This document shows, in pieces, positions 6,101-58,800 of a stretch of 64,000 nucleotides of DNA; positions within the stretch are counted from its first letter, which is position 1, and every line of letters starts with the position of its first letter. Source of the stretch: Paraspadella gotoi (Eukaryota; Animalia; Chaetognatha); NCBI GenBank assembly GCA_051294375.1, contig CM119263.1, forward strand, positions 18,066,628 through 18,130,627, in the 5' to 3' direction. A program made the position numbers and the translations under genes. The notes under the pieces were generated by a model. The model searched no databases. It saw only the letters and a list, made by a program, of their open reading frames with translations, and had not been told where the DNA came from.

Positions 6101-9100
6101 CTGATGTCGCCGTTCCAGCGACTCAAGGGCCTCAAGGTTCTCGCGTTTGAGTTCTTCCACCAGAAGCTCGTGTTGACCGAGGATTTTTGCCTGAAGGATG
6201 ATGAAAAACCGGTGACCGTACAGAAAAACCAAAGATCCAGAAGAATCAAATAGAGAGGTTGAAAATTATCTCGCCCTTCACCAAATTTCAATTTGTTTAA
6301 TGTTTCTGTTCCATTATTCATATATTGATCAAATCAAGTGTAAAAATTATTCAAAACGATTACTGCTGTATCTTTCATTAATACAGATTCCAATTTAAAC
6401 TTTTTCATTTACCAAAATTCTGTATTTCGTAATCAAATTTACGAATCCCAACGGTACTAGGGGACTAAATCAAATCGGATAAATCAAGGTCTTACTTTAA
6501 AATTCCAAAGGCCACACAGAATGCCCCACGTTGTCAGCTATTGCCAGGAAAATAAAGAGTTATTAAACAAAAAATAACCTTTGAAACCCAACGGACATAT
6601 AAAATTATAACTCAGTTGTTAAAATTTTAAACAAGTGTAGTAAAAAGTTTTAAGTCACTGACGAATAAAAAAGACCGTAAAAAATGGAATGGAGATAATC
6701 GTGAGGCGAATGTAATAAAAACGAAGTTCAAAATCGCGCAGATGGAACTCGTAAAAACGGAACTGCGATATCAGGGGCGAATCGTAAGGACAAAGACCCC
6801 GCTTCACGTCTCTTCACGAAACGTTATGACTTCTACATTCGAGGGCAAAAGTGCAAAAGGTGAGAATTCTAATTTTTGACGGACCTGTTCTCGCTGTGCG
6901 TCTTCTTGAATTTGGCGGGTGAGGTCCTCAAACTCGGAGGTGAGGGCAAGTTTGGCACTTTCCATGCGCTGCTTTGTGGTCAATTCGTTGTCACCCGCAG
7001 CGACGGGCGACAAATCAACGACTAAATCAAATAAAATTACATGAAAATAGGTAAAGAAGGCTCGTTCCACAGCAAACATACCTTTTTGCAACTCCTCGAT
7101 CTGAGCTTGCTTCTCCCTCAACTGCGACTCGAGCTGATCGCGGAGTTTCGATCTTTCCTCCTCGAAGTTGCCTTCGATCTCCCGCGTCGCTTTCTCCAGT
7201 TGCGCCAAGTTGTTTTTCAGTTGATTGATTTCCTTTTCGAACTGTTCACGTTCCATCTGCCAGGAGACTCTTTCGTCGATAGACGTTTCTTCCGTCGAAA
7301 TTCCTCCTTCCAACTCCATCTTTGACTTTTCTCTCTCCATTTCTTTGATCAACGCTTTCTCTTTTTCTATCATTTTTTGAATTTTGGATTCGAACTCCTC
7401 CGTAATCTTTTTTCGTTCCTCCTATGACCGAAAAAATAAACGTGGTTGTTAACTAGAATTTAGGAAATTAAATTACTATGGTGGACTAAAATCCACCAAC
7501 CGTTTATCAGCGGCCATTGGTGCCGGAGGCAAGTCATTCGCCTCCCAACCCAAAGGTCCGGGGTTCTAGCCCGGTGGTCGCCTAGCAGTTAAGAGGGACG
7601 GGGCGCTTAACCCGCCTGTGACATGGTGTTACAGCTGATCCGAAGCTCAGGGACTGCTTATAATAAACGGTTCTGTCATTAACACATATCAATAATTACT
7701 GTCTCTTCATTGATGAGCCCGACTTCCGAACACAACAGCAACAACAACACTTTTAGGCGACATGCCTCAACCTGGCATGCACTTTCCGCCCACAAAACAT
7801 CGGCGACATGCCTCAACTTGGTGACGCACTTTCCACCAACAACAATTCACTGAAGAGACGCAACAGACTTCTCCCTACGGGAGGGGGGATGTATGGTGGA
7901 CTAAAATCCACCAACCGTTCATCAGCGGCCATTGGTGCCAGAGGCAAGTCATTCGCCTCCCAACCTAAAGGTCCGGGGTTCTAGCCCGGTGGTCGCCTAG
8001 CAGTTAAGAGGGACGGGGCGCTTAACTCGCCTGTAACATGGTGTTACAGCCTGATCCGAAGCTCAGGGACTGCTTATAATGAACGGTTCTGTCATTAACA
8101 CATCAATAATTACTGTCTCTTCATTACGATCTTTTCTTCTCAAATCTTCAAAACCATCCCTGTCCCACGACCCTTCACATAACAGACCTCGAAAAACTCT
8201 TCGTCTTTCTTCTTCATTTCGCTCATCTCGCGCACGTGTTCTTTTCGCAGAGACATCAACTCTTCACGCGCGTCGTCTTCAATCTCTTCGCGGGCCCGCG
8301 ATCGGACTTCGGCCACTCGCGCCTCCATCAGTTCCTCCACGCGGTCCAACTTTACGGCGTATTCTACGAGAAGGGAGGGGAAGAAACGGATAATTTTTAA
8401 GCATGGTATTTGAATTGAAGAGATTTGCACTGGGAATTAAAAACATGTCAACAATCCACTCATCGCTAGACAAATCGAAATTTTTGTTTATCTCAAAATC
8501 TCCAGAATCGACGCAAAAATGGCGATTATAAAATTTTCAATTAATTACGATTTACCCGAAGCACCGGAACGATTAGAACGAGATTAATGCTCACATTAAT
8601 TAATAACCAATTTAACCATTTGCACAATTACTTTCACTCATACCTTTTTCGAACTCGTTTTTGATCTTTTGTATTTCCTCCATGATCTTGCCCTCTTTGT
8701 ACTCCTCGTCCTTTTCTTCCGAAATCTCGTATATTCCGGTTCGGGAGGATGTCGAGGCCTGAGATTCGTCTTCCTTAACGTCACCGTCATCAACGTCGTC
8801 GTCTTCGCTTTCGGAGTCTGGTTTGAGAGGGTGTATGAGGTTAGGTAGGAATTTGATCTTCAGTCCGAAACACTTTAAAACTGTTACGTTAAAGAAAACA
8901 TTTGTCTGTGTTAAACAAAAACTGCCCGTGAACATGAGAAAGAGAGAGACGCCGAGAAAGCCTCTTGTGGGTTTCATTCAGGATCACACTCGAGACCGTA
9001 CGAGGAGAGCGAACGATTAAAGAGCGTCGAGACGGGGATTGTCTATCGTTTGACAGAAAGAAAAAAAAGAGAAAAAGGTAAAGTAGAGAAAGAAAGATAG

Positions 9101-15100: not shown

Positions 15101-18100
15101 CGTCGGGACATGGAGTAACGAGGATACAGGGAACGACGGCGGCTGCGTCAGCAGTGTCGTCTTCGGAAGCCACGTCGGACGCCGCCATGGAAGCGGCCAA
15201 ATATTTTTTAGCTAATCCAAGTCATTGCAACACAAGAGAAAAGTTCACACAAGATAAAATGCGTTCCGAAGCTTTGCGAAAATTTGAATCTGGGTCTAGA
15301 TCGTCTTCTCTAACGGAGGACAGCAGTTCTTTTGATGCGTGACATCGGTGAAGAGAAAAAAAACCGAAAGACACGACAAAGAAGCTTGAAAATACAGACG
15401 ATAAATTTATCAACTCCACCAACTGCGATAAAAAGAACTAGAAAAAAAGCTCTCGGATCTCGTGAATATAAAGGATTGATTGATAAAAAGAGAAATGCAG
15501 CATGCGACGTTTTGGTCGTCTATTTGGTAATCTCAATCCCGCGCCAGGAATTTTAAAAAATCTGTTGTCGGGGAAAAAAATGCGAATCGCATGCGTTTGT
15601 AAAAAAAATAAAAATGTCAAGAAATTCTTTATTCTAGATTAACTAATTAGAGTTAATTTAATCACATGGATTAATCATTAAGGCTTGCGAGTGCCATATA
15701 ATTATACTTAATAAGGAACGAAAGCCCGCTATTATTAATTATATTATTATATATTATCATATAATAGTATAATATTACATGGTAAAATTGTATATTCACT
15801 GTTTAGCAACTTCCAGGTCGGTGATTTTTTTTTCATCTTATGAGCACAAATGCCTATTATATTAATTATTATGTTCTTATATTAAAATTCCGATAAAAAC
15901 CAAAAATTTTAATAAATTCTTTTATTTTTTAAATTGTTTTAAATATTAAATTGTGTAAGGAAATTAAGCTCAGACATAAAATACGTTTTAATGTATTAGG
16001 AGAGCAGAAAAACCAAATGACAAGATTCTAAGACTTAGACTAAGTCGGTCATTCATGCTCAAAAAGAGACACATGGGATCTCGAGAGCACGCGACGATAA
16101 CATTCGTCCGTAAAAACAGGAGAATATTCGATGCATCTGAGCAAAGGTTTGGCGCGAACCACTGCGAGGCACGAAAATAAGGAAATCAAAGGAAAAAAAT
16201 GTTGAAAAGAAATTTACGAAACGAGCTGATATCAAGATAATTTAAGCATCGATCGTTAGTTATTTCCGTTTTTTCTCCAGGGGGCGACTCTTGTGTTTGT
16301 CTGGATCGTGCGGAGGAGAACCACTCGGAAAAAGAGAAACAGTAAAGAAGAAGATGGCAATCGCCCTTTAAAAAAAATTAAAAAAAGAATAAGCTCTGCG
16401 GTTTAGCGCAGGAGAGCGAAGGCGCCAGGTCAGAGCATCTAACACATGGCAGCGATAAGGAAGCCACGGCTGCCGCCGCAGCAGCCGTGGGCGCAGGTAA
16501 GTGCGCAACCATCGATTGCGAAAAGAGGTGGGGCGGACAATGAAGTTAAAGAACTATCAGTCTAACAAAACGCCTATATTGAGAGGCGCCATGACGAAAT
16601 TAGGTTAACAAGGTAACGGGTAACCGTTTAAACAAACTGAACGAGTTGGTCTAGATTTAAAAATTGAGAAATTAACGTATAAACTTGCGTTTGAAAAAAA
16701 AGTTGATAACGGGACGCGAAAAAAAGGATAATCCGTTTGGTCTTCGGTTCGAGAAAAAAACTCACCTTGGAGTTATAATTCTTGGAAAGCTGAACCGGGC
16801 ATTGCGCCCGTAAATTCCCTCGACTTTTTTTTTGCTTGAAGAAGCTGCTCATTTTGCCGAACTAATTTTGTAATTATTTTTATTAAAATAGTTATAATCC
16901 AGCTCGATGCCGTATATAAGACACGAGAGGCATATGATTAAAACCTGCGGTTCTCAAAAAAAAAAAAAAAAAAAAGAGAAAAAAGGAAAAAAAGTTGTTT
17001 TGTTAGATTTTTTTTGGTCGATTGATCTTCAATGGTTTTCAAAACAACTTCGATCGCCCCTATGTCAGTATGAACTACCCTGTGGCACACCATATAACCT
17101 CGCCTGTTACAAGCATTTATATAAATTGTGAATAATAAAATATTATTAAATATTTATTAAGAAGGCACATTTTTTTTCTTAAATATTTTGCTTTATTTAC
17201 CAAAAAGGAAAATATACAGCAACGAGAGAGACAAATTACAAGACCCTTTAATTGTAAATTTTACAAAATAAAAAACATACTGAAGAGACAGTTATAATTG
17301 TTAGCCCACCATATAACTAAAATAAAATTGGTTTGTTTTAAAACAAGAATAAAGTTTTATTGTTTTAATTTTTATCATAAAAAAATTGAAGTAATAACTA
17401 ATAACAACAAACTAATATCTCCAATACATACAATCATTTAAAAAAAGAAGCTTGGTTAATATTAATTCACCTGTTATTAATGCTGCTCAATGTTTTTTTA
17501 GGGCCCCGATTCAACGAAAAAGAATTTCCGTCGCATTGTCGATCGTTGAGTATAAAAATAGCCGTTGACGGAAATACAATTTTAAGCATAAAAGAGGGCA
17601 ACTTGTATACGAGTATGAAGAAGTCCTGCGGAGTACGTAATGTAATATTTTTTATTCAAGATTATATTGCGAAAATTTACCCAGTTTTATGCGTGATGGC
17701 ATGAATTCGGTAACTTTCAAAAATTCCGAGAGCTGCATTATATAATTTTTTATAACTCTTTATTAAACCAATAAGGAGTTAAAATTTACGTGTGCGGTCG
17801 TAAGAGGATTCGGCTAGTCCATTACGGTTTTGTTCTCTTTGGGCGCGAAAGAGTTTTTTTTTTTTTCGTTTCGCGTCCAAAACTGATCCCGCATCGATGT
17901 TTAAGTCGAGTTCGGCGCGATCCTCTTCGTCAGTACGAAGAGACGCTACGCGTGGGTGAGGCTAAGACCAGGGTTACTCGATAAGTCGGGGAACATTCAG
18001 AGATTGCATGAAAATTTAACCAAAAAATCGTTGAAAGAGAAGTTATGCAATTAAAGAGAACTAAAATATTTAAAAGGATGCATCTCAGAGCATGAATCAA

Positions 18101-21100: not shown

Positions 21101-24100
21101 ATCTTAGCTGTATAGCCCGCATTTTTAAAAATTATTTAATAGAGTCCCGACGCAACCAGCGAGTTGGATTACTTATGGCGAAGTGCTCCTGGCCAGCCTC
21201 ACCCAAAGGTTAAGCGTCGATGGGTGGGAGAAGTGGGCTGGGGTCTCGAGGACCTCACCGACTGGAGTGTAATTAAAGTAAGTCCCTGGAGAAATGAAAA
21301 TAGGAAAGTATATTTAATTAGTATAATTAGTATAATTACCAATTTTTATAATTTGTCACCCGCTTATCAGTCGGGGTATCAAATACGAAGAAAAATTTAC
21401 AGACAAGCCAACGAAGACCGTCATGCGCACAGAATGTTAACAGCGTGGTGGCCTAAGCCTGGTAAGTCAATGAGATGCTACCTTGCTCATAAGTACAAAT
21501 GTTTAACTGATTTCCAAATCGACAGGCGACGAAATCCCTGAAATGCCAGATCAACTCGAGCACAACTACTGGACCCTGAATTTTATACGTCGACCAGTGT
21601 GGGCCAGAAACGTCGATCCATGTGTTGAGTGTCACAAGATTCACCGAGATGATGCATCCTGTGGCCGGACCCCTTTTACATATCTCAAAAAAGGGGCAGG
21701 GGCACAATCTTTAACGCGACCGCAAATTCCCTCGGCTCAATAATTCATGGAGTTTATGAAAAAAAAAGAAGATTTTTCGGAATGCATATCATCTCAAGAA
21801 TGAAATGTTAATTGTATTTTAAAATTTGAGTACAGAATAAAAGAAAATCTTAAACACTTCGCCCTTAGCGTCGAATTTAATCAACATCGAATATCAGATC
21901 AGACACTTTTTTAATCTCTGGGCGATAACTCGGAGTCTGTCTTGGGAAATGAGACCGTTAAGAAAACGACAGGACTATTCGATTAATCATGGAAGACGTT
22001 AAACTAAATTAGTATCGACAAAGTAGATTTTTATGCAGCATGAAAAGAAGACGACCTCGGCCAACTTATGTAAAGTATCTGAACAGATCGCGTGTCTCTG
22101 GGTTTACTTAAAAACTATCTAATTCCAAAACTTTGGATTTTGGGAAAACAAAGGACAGTCGTCAAAATAATTTCTTCGTTGGACGAAAGAACGTTGGACG
22201 AGAGAACGTCGAACAGAAGAGCTCAAATTATTACCTTACTTTTAACTGGAAAATGACATAACGACAATAATGGATTTTATAAATTTACAAGAAAATTTAA
22301 ATTTTTTTTTAGATTACATTTCCTCTAAACAAATTTTAGCGGATAGACAATGTCAGGTATCGCTCAAAAAAGAGCTAACTAACTATTAAAAGAAGAAGTG
22401 ACAGAAAAGTTTTCATAAAGGGTGACGCTATTCTCTAAATTTTAGCAGTGCTTGAAGAAAGAAATATATGTAATAATGAAACCAAAGAAATAGATGTCAT
22501 ACATTTGCAAAACCCTATCTATCGTGACTATTCTACTATTATACTATTCTAAATGTTTAATAAGTTCCCAATGATCCAAAATATTGTTTTGTAATAAAAT
22601 AAAGAATCTCGTATCAAAGTTACAATGCTTTTTTGTTAGTACATCAGCGGTGCACGATTTGCAATGTAACAAAAGTCAACATATAGATAGGGCATGCAAA
22701 TGAAATTTTAAATAAAATACAGTCCTGTGCAAAAAAAAACGCGCCACTTCATATCTTTCAATTCCAGACAGATTTGTTTTTATTAAAAAAAAATTATAAA
22801 ATGAAAAAGGCTATCATTGTAGTTGTAAAAAAGCTTTTAACCTTCAGATTACTCAAACACACATTCCAATATCTATATCTGTAAGACAAACCAAAATTTT
22901 AAAACATTTCATATTTTTTATAAAAATATTTCTTATAACAAGAAGCTCTAATTCAAATATAAAAAAATTGATTCTTTAAAATTCGATCATGCCATTGAGC
23001 ACATAAGAAAATAAGCAAGCTGGACTATTGGGAATTAAAAAAAAAAAAGTCAACTATTTTTTTACCAGGTTAAAAAATCTAATGGTCAGTTAACTATTTA
23101 ACCTTAAGTCGTAAGTCACGATTTAGATAAGTTCAAGAGTCGCTGAGGTTGTTCTTATTGTTGTCACCAAATAAATTGTTTTATCAAATATTTAACCACA
23201 GTATTTGATCATTTCATTTAACTCCCATTTGAAATCCATATAAAAGCTTCAGAATCATGGACCTATCTTTCATCATATATTTTAATATTATTATGATTAT
23301 AATATATTAATTATTATATATAATTATATTAGTTATCCTTCTGGATATCCAGTATAATTTTTTTTTAAGTCTTAAATAAAGTGGCGCGTTTTTTTGCACA
23401 GGACTGTAGTCTGTAAGTGCGGCAATGTGATTATTAATAATATAACAAATAACAGGTGAAAAAATACTGGAAGACTTGAAAAATTTATCAAGAGGTTTGA
23501 GTCCAGCTGTCAAAAAAATATATACAAATAAATAAAAAAATATATTTTGCATCAGACTGTGTAACATTTTAAATATTAAATTCAGTTCATTTCATCCACA
23601 TTAAGCTGGATTGATGCCAGACATTGGACAAGCAAGAAAGATATTACTCAGGCCTGTAATAAGATTATTAATAAAATCTAAAACGACGTAAACCACGATG
23701 GCGAAGAAAATGGCGGAATTTAAATTTTAATTTTTTGAATGGCGTATAGCAGCGACTTGATAGTAAAACCGAATTTCGAAAAATAAAATTTTCCCGATAG
23801 TCATTTGAAAGCTCTAGAATCTGAAAATGAGGGCAGGCCTTGCGAAGGGGACGATTACCTGTCGACGGTGTTGATCTTCCATTGATTCAATCGATTCTTT
23901 ATGGGTCGTGATGATACGATTCTCTTTCACCTGAGAACAAACAAAAACAAAAATACCGAAAAAAATATATTAAAAAACCAATAATTTATTTAAAAGAGGT
24001 CTAATAAAAAAAATTTAACCAGTTTTTTTAATAAATAAGGAAAAACCTTACCGAAAACTCCAGATCCAATTCCTTCCTAAGTTTGGCGAGATCCTCGGCG

Positions 24101-40169: not shown

Positions 40170-43100
40170 AATATCTTGTATTCACAATCGCAGACCGAAG
40201 TTCAACGCGACAACACTGTTAAAAAGATGGAATCATTGAACGCCGTTTTAGACGGAATGCGTGATCAACTCAAAGCCAAAGAGGTCAGTTAAAGAAAAAA
40301 AAGAAAAGGAAAGGAATGAACAAATGAAAGAGTTTTCCTGCGACATTAAGGTTATTTCTTTCAGACTGAGTTGGCAAACGAGTACGCCGCCAAAGGGGAG
40401 ATGAACAGAGAGTTGGAATTTACTCGGCGTGAGGTATTGTCACGTGACGAACAAATCAAAAAGCTCAAGGAGCGAGTCTTAGATGCAGAACGCGAGAGGT
40501 CGGGAGAGGCGAAGAAAAAGGCGGATGGTGAGCCTGAAATAACAAAAAAGCAATCACTTAAAAACTTATATATTCACTTTATTGATAGGGAAGCCAGGTT
40601 CTCTGGGAGTCAATAAACGAGACTAAGAGAGTCTTGATTGAAAGCTTGCGTGAACCCGCGATGTGATTATCTTGTTTGAGCGATGGAGGCCTTAAACCAC
40701 CAAAGCCTGTCCAAAGTCAGGGGCAAGATAGCTTATTTATTAAATGAATGGATAATTTTTATATTTTTTAATTTCATATCAATAAATAATAAATCAAGCA
40801 CGACTTTCTCTCTTTAGCTCAGATATAAAATCAGTCAGAAGTTGGTGAGTTGCGGCGCTTGAGTCGAAATACGTTCAGGAGGATAAAATGAATCAGGCTA
40901 TTTGGCGCAAAGAAAGGCGGAAGCAAACGCCCGAGCCGTCAACGCCAACCTGTTGACGTTACAACATGAATCAATTTCAGAGATGCAGAAGCTTTTGTTT
41001 TTGCCGATCCACAGAATTGTCAAAATTATATAGTTGTCTTTATCATTATTATTAATTTAGTATTTAGTTATATGAAATTAATTTTATTTTTATAACCTCT
41101 CTTAGTCCCCGACATTGTTTTTTTGACAATTTTGGATCTTGCTAGAATCTGAAAAGATTATTAGCTCTGTTATTAGTTTTTTAATTAATAAGAGCAGTAA
41201 AATAATCAAAATATAAAAATAATATGCTGTTTCTCTGTTCCTTTTTTCTTTTTGTATTACGTGATGAGGAGAAACATCATTTTTGCTTAAACTTGTTTGT
41301 TATCTGAGATACTTAATTTTTTTTTAATGAATAATATATTTAAAATATTCAAAAAATAATAAAATAAAATTATTACCTTATTTAAGATCTTAATATACGC
41401 CCTGTGCTTGTGATGACGTTTAAAGAAAATATTACCTATTATGGTGGACNNNNNNNNNNAGCTCAGAATAAAATCAGTCAGTTGAAGTTGGAGTTGGCGG
41501 CGCTTGAGTCGAAATACGTTCAGGAGGATAAAATGAATCAGGCTATTTTGGCGCAAAGAAAGGCGGAAGCAAACGCCCGAGCCGTCAACGCCAACCTGTT
41601 GACGTTACAACAGGTTTGCGATCGAAGCTTGAATCAATTTCAGAGATGCAGAAAAGCATCCGGGTGCGTGAGCTTTTGTTCTTATTTGATATTTAATTAT
41701 TATTTATTATTATTATTTTATTATTTATTATTACCAATCAAATCCTAAAAAAAAACCGAGAGAGAATAAAGAAAGAAAGAAAGGAAAAAAAAGAGAAAAA
41801 CAAAGCACAAAAATTCTGTGACTAAGTTAATCTCTAACGACTAAGGTCAATTTTGATCACAAAAATATAATAGTAAAATAAAAAAATTAAAGCAAAAAGT
41901 ATTTCTCCTTTTGATTGTTTAGATGATTTATTTAAAAAATATTATTCTTATATTTTTATAATAAATAATTTAATAAATAAATAATTTAAACTAATTAAAA
42001 GCAAAAAATTCAACAAATTCAATAAACATTTTATAAATATTAAAACCCCAAAATTTAAAATAATATAATACAAAGTCTACTGATTTTAAATTATTAAAAT
42101 ACATTTAATTAAAGTAAATAAAAAAAAGTATCAAAGGTATGTTTTAGTAAAAGCTGGAGGCGATCCGGGCTAAAAAAATGGGAGGCGAACGCAAAACCGG
42201 AGGCGACGGGGGTCTGGGGAGGCGGGGAGCAGAGGCTGGCAAAATTCAACGTCTCCAGCATCCCTGATCAATTTTTTCGAAATAAAATCAAATTCAAAAT
42301 AAAAAATAATTGTGACGAAACGCACACTTGGCTCAGGAGTACCAACGGCTTGTCAAGCTGAACGAAGGAGATGGAGATTACGCGAAAGATTTGATACTGA
42401 AGTGTAAAAATCTGATGGATCAAAATGAAAAGTTGGAAAAAGAACTCGGAAATGTCAGGTCATTTTTGACGTTAAACGCACCGAGCAAAGAACAGTAAAA
42501 TAGTTTGCGATTCAACCTTCTTATTATGCAAAATTAAGGTGCGAGGCGAATATGCAAATGTCTCAACTTCATCAGGACAAGAATAAAATCAATGTTGAAT
42601 ATCAGAAGTCCGTCAGGTAGGGTAGAGAAGGAAGAGGGAGAGGGGGAGAGAGAGAGAGAGAGAGAGAGAGTTTCTTCCGACGCTTGCATAGCCATAGACA
42701 AACGACAAAAAAAAAACCTTCAACAAACCAGAGAGCGACGTCACTTGGAAACGATGGTGAAAGACCTCCACGCCTCCAACGGACTCTTGCGTCATGAACG
42801 GGAAACTTCTAGCTCCGACATGGAAAGTCTGCGGAATCTGCACGACGCCGTCGTCCAGGAGAAGAAGAAGTTAAAGATCAAGACGGACCACACTATCAAG
42901 TCCCTCAACGAAATGGGTGAGAAAGAATACAGAAAAAGGAGAAGAAGAAGAAGAAGAAAAAAAAGAACGCTAATGGAGCCTCCGTTCTCTCCCCTTTCAC
43001 CCTCAAGTTAAGGAGCTCCGCCTCAAGGTTGCCGAGCTGGAGAGTCGATTCGGCAACGACGACGTCCTCCAGGCCATGTACGACGAGAAAGTCCGCGAGT

Positions 43101-43695
43101 TGGCCGCGATGCAGGTTCGCGAGTCTGGAAATGTTTAAAAATATTGAAGTAAATAGCCGTATTTCAAATGGGAAATAATGAGTGAAATAATTTGTTATAG
43201 CAACTAAAGATATTGCACTCTGGTAGAAAAATCGCTGACGTTTTTTTTATTTTTCAACTCCTAGTAGTCCAGCTTGTTTACTTTCTTAGTTATGTGCTCA
43301 ACAATGGCATGGTCGAATTTCAAAAAAAAAAAAATTTTTTTGCATTTGAAAAGGACCTTCCAGTAATAAGATATATTTTTATATGAAAAATGAAATGTTA
43401 AAAAAATTTGGTTAATCTTACAGCTATAGACATTGGAGTATGTGCCTGAGCATGACCAATCAGAATGTCAAAAGCTTTTTCACAACCACAATGACAGCAA
43501 TTTTTATTTTATAGTTTTTCTAGTTATTGATTTAACTTACGTTTCGTTGAGTTTTGGAAATTTATTAAAAACAGTTTTTAATAGACAAACAACGAGTTTA
43601 TTGACAAAATTAATCGGACATGTTTCGACTCTTATTTAGAGTCTTCATCAGCGTTTTTTCTTAATCAACAAATTTCTCTTTTAACATTGAGTGAA

Positions 43696-43756
<61 letters not shown>

Positions 43757-46700
43757 TTCCAACAAAGAGTGAGGAAAAGACAGTGGTCAGATTTTGAGAA
43801 CAGGTGAAGGTAAGGATAGGGAAGAAGAGAGAGATAAAGAGATAAATAGAGAGAAAAAAATATAATTACATTTGTCAAAGTACAACAAAGATAAAGTAAA
43901 TAAATAAGCAAACTTAATATTTAAAAAAGTCATTAATTTAACTAGTTAGTTAATTAAGAATGAAATATTAAAAAGAAGAATAAGTGAAGAGGGATAGATA
44001 AGTTTAGAATTAGTGAAATATAGATAAAAAAGAGCTCAAAAAAGAGCTGCTTCCCCCCCCCTGCCCGGGCAAAGGTGGGAGAAATTTGTTGATTAAGCAA
44101 AAACGCCGATGAAGACTCGAAATAAGAGTCGAAACATGTCCGACTAATTTTGTCAATTAACTCGTTGTTTGTCTATTAAAAACTGTTTTTCCTAAAGTTT
44201 TTCTAGTTAAAACTTTTTGAAAATACAAATTTCAGCATTGAAACAGAAATTGGAAAAGAACAAGTATCTGGCAACCGCTTGTTGTCTCATTAAACCTTGA
44301 AATATATTAATAGGAATTTTTTTGCATGCTCTCAGGACATTATACTATCTAATCAATGTAAAAAAAAAAGCTGCTGGAAGGCAGTAAAGTATTATCAATT
44401 TGCTATATAAGAACAAAAACGTCAGAAAATTTTTTTAACTAATGAAAAGATCAAATTTAAATCATATTGAGTCGGTTAAGAGTAATAACTTTTTTTTCCT
44501 TCCACCCCAATTTGAAATCCGTGTAAATAACAAAATGGAAACGATAGAAGTAAATGGTACCTTTCAGGCTGCGGTTGACGATAAGTTGTCGGCGATGGCC
44601 GCTGGAATGAAGGGCGCCACCGAGAACCTCCACGCTCAGATCGAGGCGCTGAAAAGAGCGCTGTTGCGGAAGGCGGAAGAGTTAGCGAGGATCAAGTGGG
44701 AGTACGTAGGGGAAGAATTGGAGCTCGAGCCGATCGGTATCCGGTGAGAAGAGGTTGTTCTTCAATCTATTTGTCAATTTTTTCACTCATCTTCGTTTAT
44801 GATATTAAACAACAACATCCTCTTTCTTCTTTCCAGATTCGAGACCGAAGAAGATGGAAGCGTTAAAGTGATTGAAGAGCCGGGTCTCAATAAGGAGGCG
44901 GAGCTGAAGACCATCATCAACGAGATGATGGACAAGCTGGAGCGGCTGCGGGACGACAACGAGCGCTTGAAGGATCTCCTTCGACAGTCACAGGATCGTT
45001 GCGACTGCCTTCAAAAGTGCTACGAGGAGAACAATACTCTGGAAGAACAGTTGGAGAAGTATCGCGAGGTCAGAAGTCAAGATGAGGGGGGGAGAATCCG
45101 CGCGGTATTTTCGACGGCGGATTTGATCGATGATTCCGACGTCCAATCAGATCGTTCGTTCGATGATGGACCAATCGCGGGCCGCGGCTGAGACGACGAC
45201 GGGGATGAAGTTCCATCTCCCGGGTCACTCATCGCGCGGGAGTTTCGATCAAGAAAAATATTCTTACAAAAGAGCCATTACGGAGACGGCAGCGAGCACG
45301 CGCCCCACAACGCGGCCGACCTCGCAAGCGCCTTCTACGATCGGGACGCCTATCCGGCCGATGACATCGATGCCGGCTTCGATGGGGGCGCCTATGCAGG
45401 GCCATATGGCACCACCTATGCAGGGCCCAATGACACCCCATATGCAGTCACCGATGGCAGCCCCCATGCAACCGCCGCCGCCCCAGTCGACTATGGGAGG
45501 TCCACCTGTATACGCTCCAGCTCCGGGACAAGCGCCCATCGGGTCGATGGCGCCCGCTCCGGGACAGCAGCCGATAATACAAGCTGCGCCGCGTACCATG
45601 GCGCCACCTCCAGGACCGGGAGAGTACACGCCGATTTCCTCACGTCCGCCGACGCCGACGGTGGAACCCTCTACACCCTCCGCGGCCGGTGGAGGAATGT
45701 CCAGAGGGCCTTCGAGGATGGCGTCGGCGACTTCGGCCAGCGGAGACTCCGCTATCGACGAAAAGTTGTTGCAGATGGACGAGGCCGTGACGAGGGCATT
45801 GGGCGCCCGCGACGTTCAGCTCCGCCAGTTTTTGGGGCAGAGGATCGAAACGTCGGGTTTGAACGATCCCGAACTGACAGACGACTTAGACAACTACACC
45901 GACTACAACGTGGACTTCGTGGCCGAATTGCAGACCGTCTTCAACCGGGCGAAAGAGTTGGCGGATTTGGCCGAGGAATACAGGTGAGTGTGTGTGTAAT
46001 TGTATGTGTGACTGCGAGGAAGAGATAGCAAATATATAATTGTTCTTTCCTCCGATAAATAGACTTCGATGCTGTGAGTTGGAAGTCCTCTGCGCGAAAA
46101 ACATGCAAGAGTTGGATGCTTACAAGGCGAGTTCGAATTTGTTTTTTTTTATAACGTCCGATTGCAAAAAAATTCTGGAATTCTACTATGAATCATTCTC
46201 GAAGTAATATTACGAATTCGCCTCCGTTGCTTAGGAAATGGAACGATACTTGATCGATAAAGGCATCATTTCTCCGGACTTTCTGCAAAAACTCAAAGCC
46301 AACGTTTTGGAGGAGCTGCAGCCCGAGCCCGAGGAGATGGTGGAGATGGATCACTTCTTAGAGGAACAACAGCAAATGTTGAAAGAAAAAGTGCAGAAAG
46401 AGTGCGCGAGGTGAGTCTGCATTCGATTTTTAAGAATTTCATCGCTTTTTAGAGTTCAATTTGTTTGTTGGTAAAAATGACCCTGAACTCTCTTCTTCAG
46501 CCGGGAAAATTTGATCGACTCTTTGAGGAATCAGTTTATTTACGAAGCGAAGAGAATTGCACGACGAGTTGGAAATTTTGCGTCAAAAGTTGATCGAAAA
46601 GGAGAAGGAATTGCAGGAGCGAGGATTCAAGAAGTCGGGTGAGTAATTATTAGTAATTATTTTTAATCAATATTTTTGTTGTTGTTGTTTTCCTCGTTAT

Positions 46701-49024
46701 TACGCCGTTTCCGATTCGCTCTTACTCCTTCAAATTCCCTTTCTCGTTCCTTTTCCTCATCGCAGCTACTTGGATCGCGAGGGTGCTTGGCGCGATGACG
46801 CTCCGGTTCCAGCGGACGCAGTCGGTTACCGCGATGCCGAAGGAGCTTGGAAAACTCCGTCGCCGCCGCCGAAGGAGCCGGATACGTCGACGGCGCCGGG
46901 AAGTGGCGCGACGAAGTCCCTGATCCGAAAATCGCCGGAACGGTCGACGACCAGGGCCAGTTCCGACAGGCACCGCCACCTCCGCCACCCCCACCGCCTC
47001 CGCCACCTCCACCCCTCCGCCACCTCCCCAAGAACAGCCACCGCCTCAACCACCGCTCCCCACCGCCTCCACCACCGCCGCCACCCCAAGCCCCGCAACC
47101 GGTATATCAGGAACCGCCGCCGCCCCTCAGCCTCAACCTCCGCCGCCGCCGCACCGCCACGCCTCCGGCGCCTCCTGAGCAGCCGCCACCACCGCCACCT
47201 CAACAACCCCCACCGCCTCCTCCTCCCGAACAGCCTGCACCGCCGCCACCCCAGCCACCGCCACCCCCCGTTGCCGGAAATCCACGAGCCGCCTCCACTC
47301 CCTCCGCAAGAGGTCGCGCCTCCACCGCCGCCCCCGCCGGCACCGTCTCCACCCCGAGAGCTTACCCCTGAGCCGGCTCCGCCTCAGCATCAACAGTCGG
47401 TTCACAGCCAGAGGCCGCCGCCGGAGCTGTCGGCTCACTCGGTTGCCGGACCCTCGGTTCACACCATTGGCGAGCCTTCCGTCCACGAGCCGGAAAAGTC
47501 CTCCGTCAAAGAGATGCCGGCCATCTCCTTCAAAGAACCTTCACCAGAACCTTCCGTCCACATTTCTGCCGTCGAAGAGCGAGAGCCTTCGACGCAAATG
47601 AGGGCGCCATCGATGGTGGAACCGCAGCCTACGCGAGCCTCTACGCGGCCGATTTACGCGCTGCCTGTCGACACGCAACCGGGTCCCGCCCATCCGGTGG
47701 GCGGGGTAATGGTGGAAGGTTGCCAAGAGCCGTGCCCGCCGCCGTCGGCTCTCATCGACGAGAAACTGGAGAGAGCGAGACGGTTGGAGGCGAAGGCGAG
47801 TCTGGTTGTTGTTTTCACAACGATTGTTGTTGTTGTTGATCTCCGCGGCTCCATTCTCCTCTCAGGCCGAGATGATGGAGCAGGAACAGATCCGCGTGGC
47901 GGAGACGGCGCTGCAGTGGTCGTCGCAGGTGCTTAAGCGTAAGGCCAAGGACGCCTACACCTGCTTCATGAGCTACTGGCAATCGTTGGGCGGAGTCGTT
48001 CCCGATTGCGACGATCCTTGCGAGAATCGGGCCGCGGCCGCGGCGAGAGACGACGTAAGTTGTTGGTCAAGGTCATTGATCCCTTGATTTGTAATCAATT
48101 GATTTATTACCGTAAAGAGGAGGAGTCGTTGCGCAATTCTTCTTCTTCATCTCATTCGATTTTCACTTCCTTCTTTCTTCTTCTTTCGATAAGACGTCCA
48201 TTTTGTCTCTCTGTATTTCTTGTTATTTTTTTGATCGTTTTCTCATTATACGCCTTACTATCATTTTTCGAGTCCTTACTTATTACTTATTTCAGGGATT
48301 ACAAATCAATATATTCACTCAATCGATCAATCGTTCGATCAATCATTCCATCAGCCAACAACAAAATGAGAAAATCCATCAATTAGTCAATCAAAAATTC
48401 AATCAACGGACAAATGAAACAATCTATTGGTGAATTATTCAGGGCTCGTGTCAAAAATGTACTTTTTAAATGGCTATTGGCGTAGCTTTACAACCCGCGT
48501 CATACTTGAACCTCATCCATTCAACTGCTCATCTCCCGGTTCTATCCAGTGGTTCCCAGGCATCGGCGCCTCCTCCAACGCCCATCGCGGTTCCGACACC
48601 GATGGTCAACGGAACAAGAATCGCGACATGCGTCCGTCTTCGTCGCGACGCCGATCCTCGCCCCATTCTCATCGGCAGTCTCCTTCGCGGCGAGCTCCCT
48701 CGCATCGCTCTCAATCTCATCGCTCCGAATCCCATCGCTCTCAGTCTCATCGCTCTCAATCCCACCACTCTCCTTCTCGGCATCAATCTCGACGTCCGAA
48801 CGGCGCCCCTCGGGTCAGCCACACCCACGAGGGAGACGGATGGCGTCGGTCTTCCCCACGACGAAGGCCCAACGCCAATTACGGGGCGCAACCCGGGTTC
48901 GACGACGAAGACCAATTCAACAACAACAACAGCAAAAAAATGGGCGACTTTGATTGGAAAAAGTTGAAGGAGATGCAGGAGAAGGAGGAGGAGAGAAGGA
49001 GGAGGAAGGGAGCCGCTTCGGAGA

Positions 49025-52800: not shown

Positions 52801-55800
52801 TGTTCAACACGGTTTACAAGTTGGCTGAAATAATCGTTTCAAAGAACAGCGAAGTAAAGGAAGTCGCTGTGGAGAAGGAAGGGCTGGTCGACTACAGCGC
52901 CAAGCTTAAAAAAGAATTGAAAAAATGGTCGCAGGCTCGAAGCTTTTTTGAAGAGACTCAAATAAGGCTCGAGGGAGAGCTGCACAAGGTTTATTTTGTC
53001 AAATAGAATTACCGTTAAAATTTTAATTTACCCCCCAAAATTTTTTTGCACAGACTGAAATTCAGAGAGACAACTCTAACAAAAAGGTCGAGAGTCAAAA
53101 GATTTTGTTGGACAAAATGAAAGAACAGCTGAAAAATAAAGAGGTACTTGAGTCACCATCGTGACCTTGTTGTAACAGATGTAATTCGTAAAATTCCAGA
53201 ATCATTCGTAAAGATAAAAAAATTAATTAATCTAAATTTAGGTCCCTTAAATATAAAATCTTCGGTTTGCTTAAAAGCAAAAAGAAATAAATTTTTGGGC
53301 GTCATTAATTTTTAAAAAAATTTGGTCGTTGTAGTCGGAAATTGCGACGGAAAGTGCATCAAAAGGTGAACTGGAGCGTGAGTTGGAGTTCACTCGTCGT
53401 GAGGTTTTGGCTCGAGACGAACAAATCGAGAAGTTGAGAGAGAGAATACTCGAGGTGGAGAGAGAGCGATCGGACGAGTCGAAGAAGAAAAGCGAAGGTC
53501 AGTTTGAAAATTCCCAAAAAAGATATTCTGAAAGTATGAAGCAGAAAGTAAGTCAATTTTAATGCCTTGCAGTTCAAGCTAAGAACGCTGAACTAAAGGC
53601 CGAGCTGATATCTTTGGAATCCAAGTTTGCAAAGGAAGACAGACTCAATCAAGCAGTTTTGGCTCAAAAAAAAGCTGAAGCTACTTCAAGAGCCGCCGTG
53701 GCCAACCTCCAGACTCTTCAACTGGTAATCTTTTCGACTACTTTAAATTTTAATTTCCGGGAAGTTCAGCTTATAATACGGTAAAAAAAGTGATTTGCGC
53801 GTACATGTTACATAACCAAAATTCTACCCACATTTATACTATTTATAGTTTAATTGTAAAAACAGTTTTTGTTTATTGCTGATTTAATTTAAAAAGTAAT
53901 ATTGCTTGACAGGAATATCAACGAATCCTAAACCTTAACAAGGGGGACAGCGATCAGTCAAAAGAATTAATTGACAAATGTCGTAGTCTGATGGAAACGA
54001 ACCATGAGCTTGAAAAGGAATTGGGTCACTACAGGTATGCCTCAGAAATGCAAATTTTGCAGAATTTTAAAAAAAATACTGTAATTCACCTTTCGTGCTA
54101 TCTTGCCCTTTTATTTATTTTCTAGATGCGAAGCGAACATGCAAATGGCTCAACTCCACGCAGACAAAAACAAAATTAACTTTGAATACCAAAAAATGAT
54201 CAGGTCGATGAAAGAGAAAGAGAAATAATAAACACGCCCCATGTTTTTTAAATTTTTTTTTTGTCTTTCGAGATCACTTTTAATTTCTCACTTTGTTCAT
54301 TTTTTTTTTAAATTAGGGAAAGGACCCACATGGAGACGGCCATCTCCGATCTGCGCGCTTCCAACGGTCTCCTGCGTCACGAGCGCGAGACTTCCAAGTC
54401 GGACGTCAACGCGTTGAGGGTCCAGCTCGACGCGGAGAAGGACGCGAGGAAGAAGGAGAAGATCAAAACGGATTTCATGGTCAAGTCGCTAAATGACACC
54501 GGTGTGTAAGTGTTGAGGGGGAAAAAAAAGAGAGAGAGTAGAGCTGAATGAATATAAGGAGTACCGTTGAAATGATTAAGGAATTTCTGAAAAGTTTTTC
54601 TCGTTTTTGAGTAATATTTTTATAAATTATTATGTATATTTAGAAAACTGTTTTAAGTGTTGTTTTTTCTTTGCTTTTGTTAGTAAAACAACTACGAATA
54701 AAAATCTCCGAGTTAGAGAGTCGAATGGGAAATGAAGATCTTCTGAAGGAAATGTACGACGAAAAAGTCCGAGAAATGGCTAATCTGCAGGTTATAATTT
54801 ATTAATATTATGGTTACTTGGTTTTTTTTTACTTGGTAACCGGTACAACCACAGAATTATCGAATAGCCAATACCAATCAATCAGAAAGCGACCGATCAC
54901 AAGCTAACGATGATGGCAATGAGGATGAAAGGCACGACCGAAAATCTCCACGCTACCATCGAAGCGCTAAAAAGAGCGTTGCTGCGAAAGGCCGAGGAGT
55001 TGGCGAGAATCAAATGGGAGTACGTTGGGGAAGAGCTGGAGTTGCAGCCGATCGGACTCAGGTGAAAATACTGAAAAGTAAAGGGAGACGTAAGAAAAAC
55101 TTGAGAAAAAAAAATACTTGTGGCATTTAGTTAAACAGAGGGCTACTTAATTTTCAACTTAAAGGTTCGAAACCAAATCCGACGGTATGGTGGTGGTTAT
55201 AGAAGAGCCAGGCCTCAATAAAGAGGCAGAATTGAAGAACATCATTAACGAGCTGATGGACAAGCTGGAGCGGTTGAGAGATGACAATGAACGCCTCAAG
55301 GACATCCTCTCCAATTCTCAGCAAAGATGCGACTGTCTTGAAAAAGCTTTCGAGGATAATCAACGGCTTGAGACTCAGGTTAATTGAGATGACAACTCTA
55401 ACTCACACTCATGAACTAAAAAGTTTTGCTAAATTTTGTTCGCACATCTAATTTTGAAACTGATCAAATAGAAAAATATGTGAAAATTTTTTATTTTGCT
55501 GTAAATGTTAAACGAGACTAGTGTCTCACAGGTGGAAAAGTATCGTGAACTCGTAATGGGCCTAGCGAATCAGGCCCGCGACATTCCCGGCAAGGGCAGC
55601 GTTTCGAGGCGAGGGCAAGGCGCGGCAACTGATGACCTCACGGACGTGGAGAAAGCGGCAATAGTTCTGGCGACGGCGGCGGCCAAGAAAATCGTGGACC
55701 ATACGCAGGGTCCTGGAGACGCTGCCGGTGCGATTCCCGGGGTGCCCACGACTTATGCTGCGGCTGCGACGGCTGCAGGCGAACCCACCAAAGCAAACGA

Positions 55801-58800
55801 ACCGCCAAGGGGAGCGACAGCGGATTCCCCTTTCGAGACTGCGAGGCTCGTCGAAGGTTTCCCGCCGATTCCGCCGGCGCCGCTGCGGTCCCGGACGCCG
55901 TCGGAATCCGACCTCGGCGAAGAGGAGTATGAGCCAGTGATCGGCTCGACGCTCGAGGCCCTCGACGACGCAGTCGTCGCCGCCATGACAGCCAGAGACC
56001 GGCAGCTCCGTCATTTTCTCGGAGACCGAATCCATGCTGCCGGTTTGGACGATCCCGCCCTTGAGGGCATGCGGATGGAGTACGGTCCGGATGACGTGGA
56101 CTTCGTCGCCGAAATGGAAGACGTCTTCAATCGGGCAAAGGATCTGGCCGATCTTGCCGAGGACTACAGGCGAGAAAGAGAGAGACAACCGGCTGCGCTT
56201 TTGTTTTTTTTTAATTAAGAAAAATATGAATTAAACACATGAAAGAAACACATCTTTACTTTTCAGGATTCGGTGCGCGCAGCTGGAGTTAATATGCGCA
56301 AAAAATATTAAAGAATTGGATCATTATAAGGTTGAGTAAGATAATTATGCTCTGATTCAATGTGATTTGGAAGTTAACAATTTTTTTTTCCACTTAAGTT
56401 CGATTTTACTTAATGCTTATCTACAACTTGAATGACGCCAATTTGCTTGAATAGGAGTTGGAAAAATACTTGATAGAGCAAGGGATCATCGCAGTCGATT
56501 TCCTACAAACGATGAAGGCAAACGTGCTCGATCTCCTAAGACCAGCTCCCCAGGAGATCGTGGAGATGGATCACTTTTTAGAGGAGCAACAGAATTTCTT
56601 GAAGGAGAAAGTCGCTGCCGAATGCGCTAGGTAAAGTTTGGAAATAATATTAATTGGGTATTTGACAAAATAAGTAATTGACAGTTATAAAATTTTGAGC
56701 GTTTTGATGAAGGTCCGAATGTAAGACCGAATTTATTGACATAGAAACGGATATGTTTCGGCTTTGGATGCAAGCCTTCATCAGCGTTTTTTACAGTTTG
56801 TAAAGTTACGCTTAATTTGTGAGTTTAAAACAGATTGTGTCCGAATTTATTCAGCCGACAAAACTTGATTGATGCATTGCGAAATCAGTATCTGGAAGAG
56901 GCAAAGGAGCTTCACGACGAATTGGAGATTCTGCGCCAGAAACTCATCGAGAAAGAGAAGGAACTAGAAGCGAAGGGATTCAAGACATCGGGGTAAAAAT
57001 TTTTGCAACATGAAAACAATTTTAAAAATTGTTTTAGCCGGATCTTCTTATAGTTGATTCCGGCTCTTTGTCGGTCCCCACCCACAATCTGATCGGTAAG
57101 TCATTTACATCATCTCCGAACACCAAATTATGATAAATGTCTGTCCGTCCGTATCCCCTTAGATTTAAACGCCAATTACTCTTAAGTAGATCGGGCAATT
57201 GACTTGAAATTTTGTGTGTGGGTGTGGAAATGTGTGTGTGATCTAGATTTTAAGTTTTGATAGAATCGTCCAAATAAAAATGTTTAAATGGAAAAAACAA
57301 AATACCCGTTTTGTTGTTTGATTATGATTTTAAAATTTTTTTTAAATTATTTAATTAATTAACCAATTCATTTATATAATAAAGATATAGTAATAAGTTT
57401 TAGTAAACAATGCCCAATCTGCTCACGATTATTAGCGGTGAAAAGTTGCTCTTATGGTCGACTAAAATCCACCAACCGTTCATCAGCGGCCATTGGTGCC
57501 GGAGGCAAGTCCTTCGCCTCCCACCCCAAAGGTCCGGGGTTCTAGCCCGGTGGCCGCCTTGCAGTAAAGAGGGACGGGGCGTTTAACCCGCCTGTAACAT
57601 GGTGTTACAGCCTGATCCGAAGCTCAGGGACTGCCTATATTGAACGGTTCTGTCACTATCACATAACAATTATCACTGTCTCTACATTCTGATGATAAAT
57701 TGTTATTTAATTAATCAATTATTATTTATTAATGAAAATTAATAATATAATTCATTAACTGATCAGCTGCTTAGTGCTTACGGCTAATTTTCGTGAGCAG
57801 ATCCGGCATTGTTTACTCAAACTTGTTTTGATATAATTACTTTTTTTTCCCCACATTTTCTCGATTATTTCTTTCTCACACTTAAAAATAGCTGGTTGTT
57901 CTTTCTTTTAATTTTTGTACTGAATCAACGTTGTTGCATTCGAATAATAACGCTTATATATTGATGGAAGTATTAGCACTGTGTATTGTTTTTTTAATAA
58001 CTTTTGTCAAAATGCCATGTCTTATGTTTGATTTCAGTTATCTCGATCGAGATGGGAAATGGAAAGACGATGCCCCGCCCCCTGCTGACGCCATTGGTTA
58101 CCGAGACCCCGATGGATCCTGGAAGAGAACAACGCCGCCTCCAACTGATCCAGGATTCGTCGACGGAACTGGCCAATGGCGCAACGAAGTGCCCGATCCC
58201 AACATTGCAGGGCATGTCGATGGTGGAGTCTTCATTCAAGCCAAATTGCCAGATATGCCTGTTCCTGTCGTTGTACCCATGGGCATCACACTACCGCTTC
58301 CTGGCTTACCAGAGGGCCACCCGGGTCAGCCTGGGCAGCCTGGACAACCGCCTGGATATCCGCCTCAACCCGGCCAGCCCATGCAACCCGGCCAGCCCAT
58401 GCAACCCGGGCAGCCCATGCAACCCGGGCAGCCCATGCAACCCGGGCAGCCCATGCAACCCGGCCAGCCCATGCAACCTCAACCCGATCAAGCGGCATAT
58501 CCGAGTCAAGGTCCGACTCCTGGTGCACCTGACCAGCCTTCCGAAAAACAAGGAAACAAGATACAAGTTGACATGCAGTTACCCGACGTACCTTATTTGG
58601 ACATTGACCTAAATATACATGGTCCACAGGGTCAGGCGCAGCCAGAGGGAATACAAAAAGTTGCTCAAGACGGTTCTCCGCTGCCTGAAGAGTCTGGTCC
58701 AGCTCGTGTAACTGAAGAAACTACGGGCCAAATAACTGGAGAAACCGAAATGACAACGGAGGAAAAAGTCCCGGGCGAGAGGGAAAGCGCGGGAAGGGAA

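Follow-up and report, generated by a model that had tools for sequence, protein, structure and literature searches.

Within the 64-kb window analysed here (the whole stretch of Paraspadella gotoi DNA, 64,000 nucleotides) a 647 bp element occupies positions 7477-8123 of the forward strand and is flanked on both sides by the target-site duplication TTAC, at 7473-7476 and again at 8124-8127. It is bounded by two long terminal repeats (LTRs), LTR1 (7477-7709, 233 bp, with TA...CA ends) and LTR2 (7892-8123, 232 bp), which share 96.2% identity. Between them lies a non-coding internal region of 182 bp (7710-7891) that contains a 46-bp tandem dimer (7756-7842), a primer-binding site at 7711-7723 and a polypurine tract at 7879-7889 followed by a TG spacer and then LTR2. 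The longest ATG-started frame in the element has 58 codons. The layout given in a preliminary description of this locus, an ORF-less 647-bp element with a TTAC duplication, a primer-binding site and a polypurine tract, is thereby confirmed, while of the two 233-bp LTRs that it listed only LTR1 has that length. Comparison with the Trp site in Fig. S2 of Kojima 2024 (PMC10886601) indicates that the primer is probably tRNA-Trp, the family reading of the site agreeing with it in 12 of 13 letters; at 7713, within the site, the 7477-8123 copy deviates from nearly all of the family depth.

Genomic context and dispersal of the family

The element sits in antisense orientation within a 766 bp GT-AG intron of a coiled-coil gene on the minus strand (7422-8187). 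The intron was delimited with run X9, a set of contigs one of which joins across it with minus-strand GT-AG ends, and X9 therefore resembles RNA data. Further along the window, from 21143 onward, lies a DUF4562 exon, which points to an animal host; protein searches from the window matched unnamed metagenome proteins only. Among the 167 reading frames scanned in the window we found no reverse transcriptase or helper element.

A solo LTR of the same family lies on the forward strand at 57453-57686 (91-92% alike), and from a paralogue it appears to be inserted in sense in a host intron. It carries an intact tRNA-like module (57486-57558) and a twister-like motif (57561-57634, forward strand, predicted cut after 57584). 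At the two insertions examined the duplication is exact for the element (TTAC) and matches in three of four letters for the solo LTR, whose flanks are CTCT and TTCT. Between 1,118 and 19,149 contigs per run match the stretch in four public runs and in the DNA runs the summed depth over the element is hundreds to more than ten thousand times that of its flanks, a ratio that is not a copy number. In all four runs loose ends with unrelated AT-rich flanks accumulate at 7477/7892 and 7709/8123, the ends of the two LTRs. Because of the solo LTR and these shared insertion ends we conclude that the element is a dispersed LTR family with fixed TA...CA ends and not a local duplication, which excludes the tandem SINE duplication raised earlier as an alternative.

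A tRNA-like module in each LTR

Relaxed ARAGORN searches place a degenerate tRNA-Gly(CCC)-like module at 7510-7582 in LTR1 and 7925-7997 in LTR2, both on the forward strand. At its normal threshold ARAGORN called no tRNA gene, at 90% it called a single gene in the window, that of the solo LTR, which scores highest, and at 85% it made six calls, half of which coincide with the three LTRs, every one of these reading as tRNA-Gly(CCC) and spanning LTR positions 34-106. The acceptor and T arms are fully paired and the D and anticodon arms are degenerate. Using a consensus drawn in part from PMC10886601, an A-box-like sequence (7518-7529) and a B-box-like sequence (7562-7572) can be placed on the forward strand of the LTR1 module, a predicted RNA polymerase III (Pol III) promoter. 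Of the boxes given by Kojima GGTTC and YGG are present and TRGCY is absent. From its sequence the module reads as a promoter relic rather than a working tRNA. In all three LTRs a twister-like motif begins 2 nt past the module (7585 and 8000 in LTR1 and LTR2), in agreement with the earlier claim that the two parts follow each other within 3 nt.

Architecture of the twister-like motif

The motif has the P5-permuted form with a P3 and spans 7585-7657 in LTR1 and 8000-8073 in LTR2, on the forward strand in both. The order of parts in each LTR is P5, P2', GA, T1', a short link, U^AA, P2, GC, P3, P4, the T1 loop, AA, GC and P5'. In LTR1 the helices are P5 (7585-7589 with 7653-7657), P2 (7594-7596 with 7611-7613), P3 (7616-7634) and P4 (7635-7638 with 7647-7650), the pseudoknots are T1 (7599-7602 with 7639-7642) and T2 (7614-7615 with 7645-7646), the predicted catalytic G is 7597 and the predicted cut falls between 7608 and 7609. 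The LTR2 motif has a P4 of 5 bp, a predicted catalytic G at 8012 and a predicted cut between 8023 and 8024. P3 is 7 bp with a C-G closure, P4 is 4-5 bp and P5 is 5 bp. The core of the P5-type twister (U^AA, GA, the GC/GC T2, a 4-bp T1, the AA linker, P4 and a C-G closing P3) is complete in all three LTRs, and the predicted cuts after 7608 and 8023 lie 415 nt apart, the spacing that had been proposed.

In comparison with the Rfam Twister-P5 family (RF02684) the motif shares the order P2'-GA-T1'-P1-UAA-P2-GC-P4-T1-AA-GC-P4', and its P2 has the three-position length seen in some members. It differs in having nearly no P1, which is reduced to a 5-nt link, in a P2 with two of three pairs and a C.A at its end, in a first T1 pair flipped from the consensus C-G to G-C with both sides changed at once, and in possessing P3 and a closed P5, and it falls under the detection level of the model. 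When T1 positions were mutated in pairs, every Watson-Crick replacement was tolerated (PMC9901934), and natural schistosome twisters with weak P1 still cleave (PMC8501958). We considered whether a P2 of three nucleotides is in itself a defect and rejected this, a 3-bp P2 being present in Twister-P5 members above the cut-off: eight such Rfam matches were found among 20 phage loci, plus locus L014, numbers which give no frequency because the search pattern demanded a 3-bp P2. Every natural 3-bp-P2 example that we parsed has all three pairs together with a long P1 and lacks a C.A at the end.

Detection of the motif and the question of chance

A descriptor of the motif matches the three LTRs only in the 64-kb window, recovers 11 of 14 natural twister loci (phage loci called by Rfam) and turned up 67 times when LTR2 was shuffled 515,262 times with its dinucleotides preserved, P3 (7 bp) and P5 (5 bp) being left uncounted. 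An earlier and looser descriptor gave one match when 40 windows of 64 kb were simulated and scanned on both strands. Both descriptors were written after the motif had been seen and the three copies amount to one evolutionary observation.

Covariance models were less favourable. The preliminary description had named the lack of a covariance-model match as grounds for refuting its reading, and with Rfam this outcome went against it: there was no twister match in 7000-8600 or 7930-8110 at E values up to 1 or 10 and the motif stayed short of the RF02684 gathering score, though the P5 model is without a P3 arm and expects a P1 of 8 bp; no hammerhead match was found over the element either. A model of our own, R1, is based on 7 phage twisters that remained after 12 of the 19 candidate loci had been dropped as misaligned by MAFFT. 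It placed the three motifs at the top of ten matches with 15.8 (LTR1, E 0.2), 12.9 and 12.4 bits, non-significant scores (E 0.2-0.9) of which only the first-ranked is in the right register; the next unrelated match reached 11.8 bits and held-out natural twisters 29-51 bits. Exact-motif scans for relatives in viral collections returned nothing in two cases and in a third gave six loci without a twister among them, and these empty scans say little because the collections are prokaryotic and viral. Six of 144 viral and genome loci have at most two mismatches to the motif. Three metagenome loci from an exact-motif scan were rejected as chance matches, all of them being without the twister loop.

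The motif could in principle be a chance resemblance arising in a G+C-rich and hairpin-rich LTR, as the missing Rfam match, the non-significant R1 score and the post hoc descriptors would allow. We regard this as very improbable given the rarity of the pattern in shuffles and the fact that its P3, P4 and linker closely resemble those of the schistosome twisters listed in PMC8501958. In our assessment the motif is very likely of twister origin, and the twister reading put forward in the preliminary description holds with all core elements in place.

Relation to Helenus and to ribozyme-bearing elements

The LTR, tRNA-like and target-site features of the element are those of Helenus, a group of TRIMs (miniature retrotransposons with terminal repeats) described as having a tRNA-like sequence in each LTR, making 4-bp duplications in animals and probably being moved by Gypsy elements, with Pol III transcription predicted (PMC10886601). 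Shared with Helenus as described there are a short non-coding LTR structure with a tRNA-like part per LTR, a primer site, a polypurine tract, solo LTRs, the animal-type 4-bp duplication, a length (647 bp) inside the Helenus range of 311-1263 bp, and the TA...CA ends of several wasp families, several wasp LTRs also starting with TATA. The element fits Helenus on every feature examined but box A, an assignment made by shared features. It differs in that a twister-like motif follows the tRNA-like part with no T-run between, whereas by eye most Helenus LTRs in the animal consensus sequences available have a T-run right after the tRNA and end soon after it. The available text of Kojima 2024 (PMC10886601) contains neither 'twister' nor 'self-cleav', and six twister-loop words searched for in what is available of its supplement occur in six places, none of which looks by eye like a twister context (line breaks may hide matches).

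Two Helenus families of Synergus wasps, Helenus-2_SyJa and Helenus-2_SyUm, carry by eye a type III hammerhead motif after the tRNA-like part, again with no T-run before it. Helix I is 7 bp, helix II 4 bp and helix III 6 bp including a G.U, and the motif has a GUC site, a CUGAUGA core and a 12-bp loop-loop pairing, the last three also read by eye. These families share with the P. gotoi element the position of the ribozyme motif in the LTR, a Trp primer site and a 4-bp duplication, and differ in having a hammerhead instead of a twister, TG...CA ends and a length of 1.04 kb; their internal regions contain T4 runs. The hammerhead goes unremarked in the available text of PMC10886601. Because the wasp hammerhead and the twister-like motif stand at the same place, predicted ribozymes in tRNA-headed LTR elements have, on sequence evidence, arisen with two classes, twister and type III hammerhead.

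Plant LTR retrozymes (PMC4918200) likewise have a ribozyme motif per LTR, a primer site, a polypurine tract, a 4-bp duplication and solo LTRs, and in them the R region is lost on double cleavage and the ribozyme is blocked in the monomer, both of which are predicted for the P. gotoi element. The analogy with plant retrozymes drawn earlier holds, a putatively self-cleaving motif occupying matching positions in the two LTRs. As described in PMC4918200 the plant elements differ in carrying type III hammerheads, a Met primer and monomers of 600-1000 nt and in having no tRNA-derived module, and their circles have been demonstrated, those of the P. gotoi element being predicted. Described retrozyme RNAs are also more than 70% paired (PMC4918200), above the 53% that we calculate for the predicted monomer (see below). 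With no hammerhead and low pairing the element is not an LTR retrozyme as defined, and it may work like one.

Schistosomes offer two further parallels. Their ribozyme SINEs combine a Pol III promoter derived from tRNA and a ribozyme in one repeat (PMC6765202), and the twisters of Perere-3 share with the motif a weak P1, use by a retrotransposon and a similar P3, P4 and linker (PMC8501958). As described in these sources both elements differ from the P. gotoi element in being non-LTR, without primer site or polypurine tract; the SINE carries a hammerhead, and the Perere-3 twister is unpermuted and lies at the 5' end of a LINE.

Conservation and predicted activity

The three LTR copies differ from each other by 4-9% and all twister core positions are kept. 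Inside the motif there are five differences, which break no core pair and fall in loops or produce G.U pairs. Among the variants listed a T1-breaking change at 8058 accounts for 3-13% of the family depth. The minimum-energy fold is not the twister but a rival hairpin that buries T1' and P2; it is better by 8-10 kcal/mol than the twister skeleton when the pseudoknots are left out of the latter's score, and the folding z-scores of the motif are -1.0 to -1.9.

These folding results suit an account in which the twister is a silenced relic and the element is mobilised like any other Helenus, by way of a linear RNA that stays uncut and stops at a T-run in the flank, such as that found at 8132, 8 nt downstream of the element. 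The relic would go back to a SINE-like cassette of tRNA and twister inserted in the LTR of an ancestral TRIM, a SINE-insertion origin of the kind argued for Helenus in PMC10886601. The P2 mismatch, the lost P1 and the low R1 scores point in the same direction, as does the apparently tolerated solo LTR: in what appears to be a sense position in an intron a ribozyme that worked efficiently would cleave the host pre-mRNA, and this counts against activity. We nevertheless hold the relic account to be unlikely, given the retention of the core in diverged copies and the intact-looking hammerhead at the same place in a second Helenus lineage. The twister is, in our assessment, likely to be active in typical copies of the family.

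A possible route through a self-cut circle

Taking these features together we are inclined, by somewhat better than an even chance, to see a Helenus-type element that works like the plant LTR retrozymes through a self-cut and ligated circle. Pol III would initiate at the tRNA-like module in LTR1 and read through the element, a step suggested by the lack of a T4 run in most copies. The only T4 run within the element (7751-7754) is private to the 7477-8123 copy and, in all four runs, missing from more than 99% of the family depth. This rarity counts for read-through, yet with a T fraction of 0.23 a stretch of 647 nt free of T4 is nothing unusual and not unlikely by chance.

Both twisters would then cut and release the predicted monomer (7609-8023, forward strand), a 415-nt piece with a 5'-OH and a 2',3'-cyclic phosphate and without a terminal repeat. 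Each of its ends would carry one half of the ribozyme, and these halves may serve to hold the ends next to each other for ligation by a host enzyme such as RtcB. As a circle the monomer is 53% paired (z -2.0), a low value that counts against this route. On the circle the rival hairpin over the cut site would likely block re-cutting, in the manner of the blocked hammerhead of plant retrozymes. Lacking a terminal repeat the 415-nt piece cannot make the first strand transfer; a tRNA-primed reverse transcriptase of Gypsy type might instead cross the junction, so that the circle would stand in for that transfer, and a Gypsy-type integrase would insert the DNA with a 4-bp duplication. In plant retrozymes ligation into a circle is argued to solve the same problem of a missing R region, the hammerhead being blocked in the monomer (PMC4918200). 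After the cut the promoter would lie at the monomer's 3' end, a position that in the schistosome ribozyme SINEs forces tandem arrays (PMC6765202); here LTR duplication would restore it.

The LTR-to-internal depth ratio is 11.9 in X9 and 5.1-12.3 in the DNA runs, values which neither support nor exclude a circle. Reads across the 8023-to-7609 junction, which had been suggested as a check, cannot reveal one because this junction is ordinary LTR sequence.

A 9-bp stem (7499-7507 with 7663-7671, forward strand) closes the domain formed by the tRNA-like module and the twister. At 7505/7665 it has U-A in LTR1 and C-G in LTR2 and the solo LTR, the one compensatory pair among 53 in the three copies, which is not significant (179 of 500 shuffles). 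Both minority letters, each taken separately, are far above single-copy flank depth in the three DNA runs. The 5' strand of the stem lies upstream of the tRNA start, so the stem could form in LTR2 or on the circle and not in LTR1 of a Pol III transcript, and because that strand is missing only from the transcribed LTR1 the two ribozymes would fold in different contexts. This placement fits the circle and equally fits a scheme in which the twister is active and forms the 3' end only. If LTR2 alone cut, the linear product (7510-8023) would measure 514 nt and keep a terminal repeat of 99 nt, so that reverse transcription could proceed through the usual strand transfer, the ribozyme replacing the Pol III terminator. 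Apart from the closing stem, with its compensatory pair and its deeply covered minority letters, this scheme gains from the ribozyme occupying the place of the T-run of other Helenus and from a monomer that is not highly paired. The closing stem forms equally well in the circle, however, its role as an on-switch for the ribozyme is hypothetical, and plant LTR retrozymes cut in both LTRs (PMC4918200). Cutting in LTR2 only strikes us as rather improbable and we continue to favour the circle.

Novelty and implications

The combination of LTR, tRNA and twister had been put forward as undescribed. Because Helenus has already been described, the LTR with a tRNA-derived module and a 4-bp duplication in animals is the known part (PMC10886601) and only the ribozyme is new. 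Animal retrozymes are given as non-LTR in the available parts of PMC7761336 and of a 2026 preprint (10.64898/2026.07.22.740005), the latter describing LTR retrozymes as primarily of plants and all with type III hammerheads, and the 2020 review (PMC7761336) alludes, as 'in preparation', to type III hammerheads in elements of insects. What is available of PMC11722881 and PMC12029980 holds nothing further on animal retrozymes. A role for twister has been reported for one schistosome LINE only. In the literature covered, which leaves subscription papers and Repbase notes outside, we found neither an LTR element that contains a twister nor an animal LTR element or Helenus reported to bear a ribozyme.

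The wider reading is that LTR retrozymes exist in animals too, in the form of Helenus elements driven by Pol III in which the terminator has been traded for a ribozyme at least twice and a circle replaces the first strand transfer. We offer this tentatively and put it a little short of even. Should the ribozyme be dead the element would be a new Helenus family of modest interest. If the reading is true, no earlier genomic circular RNA would have been based on a twister and no earlier LTR element would have contained one; the ribozyme class would be interchangeable, and the strategy of an LTR circle would have arisen outside plants and coupled to a tRNA promoter. The element would also represent a natural twister almost without P1, a natural system of 415 nt for asking if strand transfer can be dispensed with once a circle is made, and a possible origin of animal circles resembling viroids.

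Genes and other repeats in the window

Two paralogous multi-exon genes lie on the forward strand at 43010-48075 and 54686-59804, neither of which gave any Pfam match, and the solo LTR of the same family as the element (57453-57686, forward strand) appears to sit within the second in the sense orientation, flanked by two of its exons. The reverse strand carries long coiled-coil coding exons across 1017-29454, including one of 1273 codons. A stretch near 1200-1481 is reminiscent of AKAP9/pericentrin; a protein search returned no match. Among the other repeats, at 22789-23068, 43220-43519 and 43558-44199, are an inverted pair of 280 bp and an inverted repeat of 121 bp (93%) that resembles a miniature DNA transposon.

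Comparison with other twister and hammerhead motifs

Among the loci outside the window compared for twister likeness, phage twister-P5 ribozymes with a P2 of 3 bp were found at L014:274-341, L243 and L263-L270, the P2 of the Rfam consensus being 4 bp. Several of these also possess a P3 arm and some occur in pairs with 350-500 nt between them (L265, L268). At L100:147-201 (reverse strand) lies a twister-like motif whose P2 reads CCC and whose P4 has 5 bp. Its score of 25.3 bits is sub-threshold for Rfam, and possible partners were seen both upstream and downstream of it.

Inspection by eye of supplement DataS1 of PMC10886601, which covers the tRNA-headed Helenus TRIMs, identified a complete type III hammerhead motif in the LTR consensus of two Synergus wasp families (Helenus-2_SyJa-LTR and Helenus-2_SyUm-LTR), with a 12-bp loop-loop pairing and located in both directly 3' of the tRNA-like part. 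The motif is unremarked in that paper.

Internal pairing and variation between the LTRs of the element

Within the element a 13-nt inverted repeat (7701-7713 / 7847-7859) allows the internal region to pair with the LTR end and the first part of the primer site, an arrangement that could possibly control priming. The 3' end of the LTR also has a 23-nt match at 17278-17300 on the reverse strand (E 0.12), either a remnant or chance.

Minor variants were present at both partners of one pair of the twister helix P4 (7637 G>A and 7648 C>T); if linked, the two changes would compensate for each other. In the stem enclosing the tRNA-like and twister domain, one pair differs between the two LTRs in a compensatory manner, being U-A at 7505/7665 versus C-G at 7920/8081. 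This difference suggests that the LTRs derive from two family variants rather than from decay alone, with gene conversion or intermolecular strand transfer as suggested routes. With such an origin, LTR divergence would provide no clock for this element.
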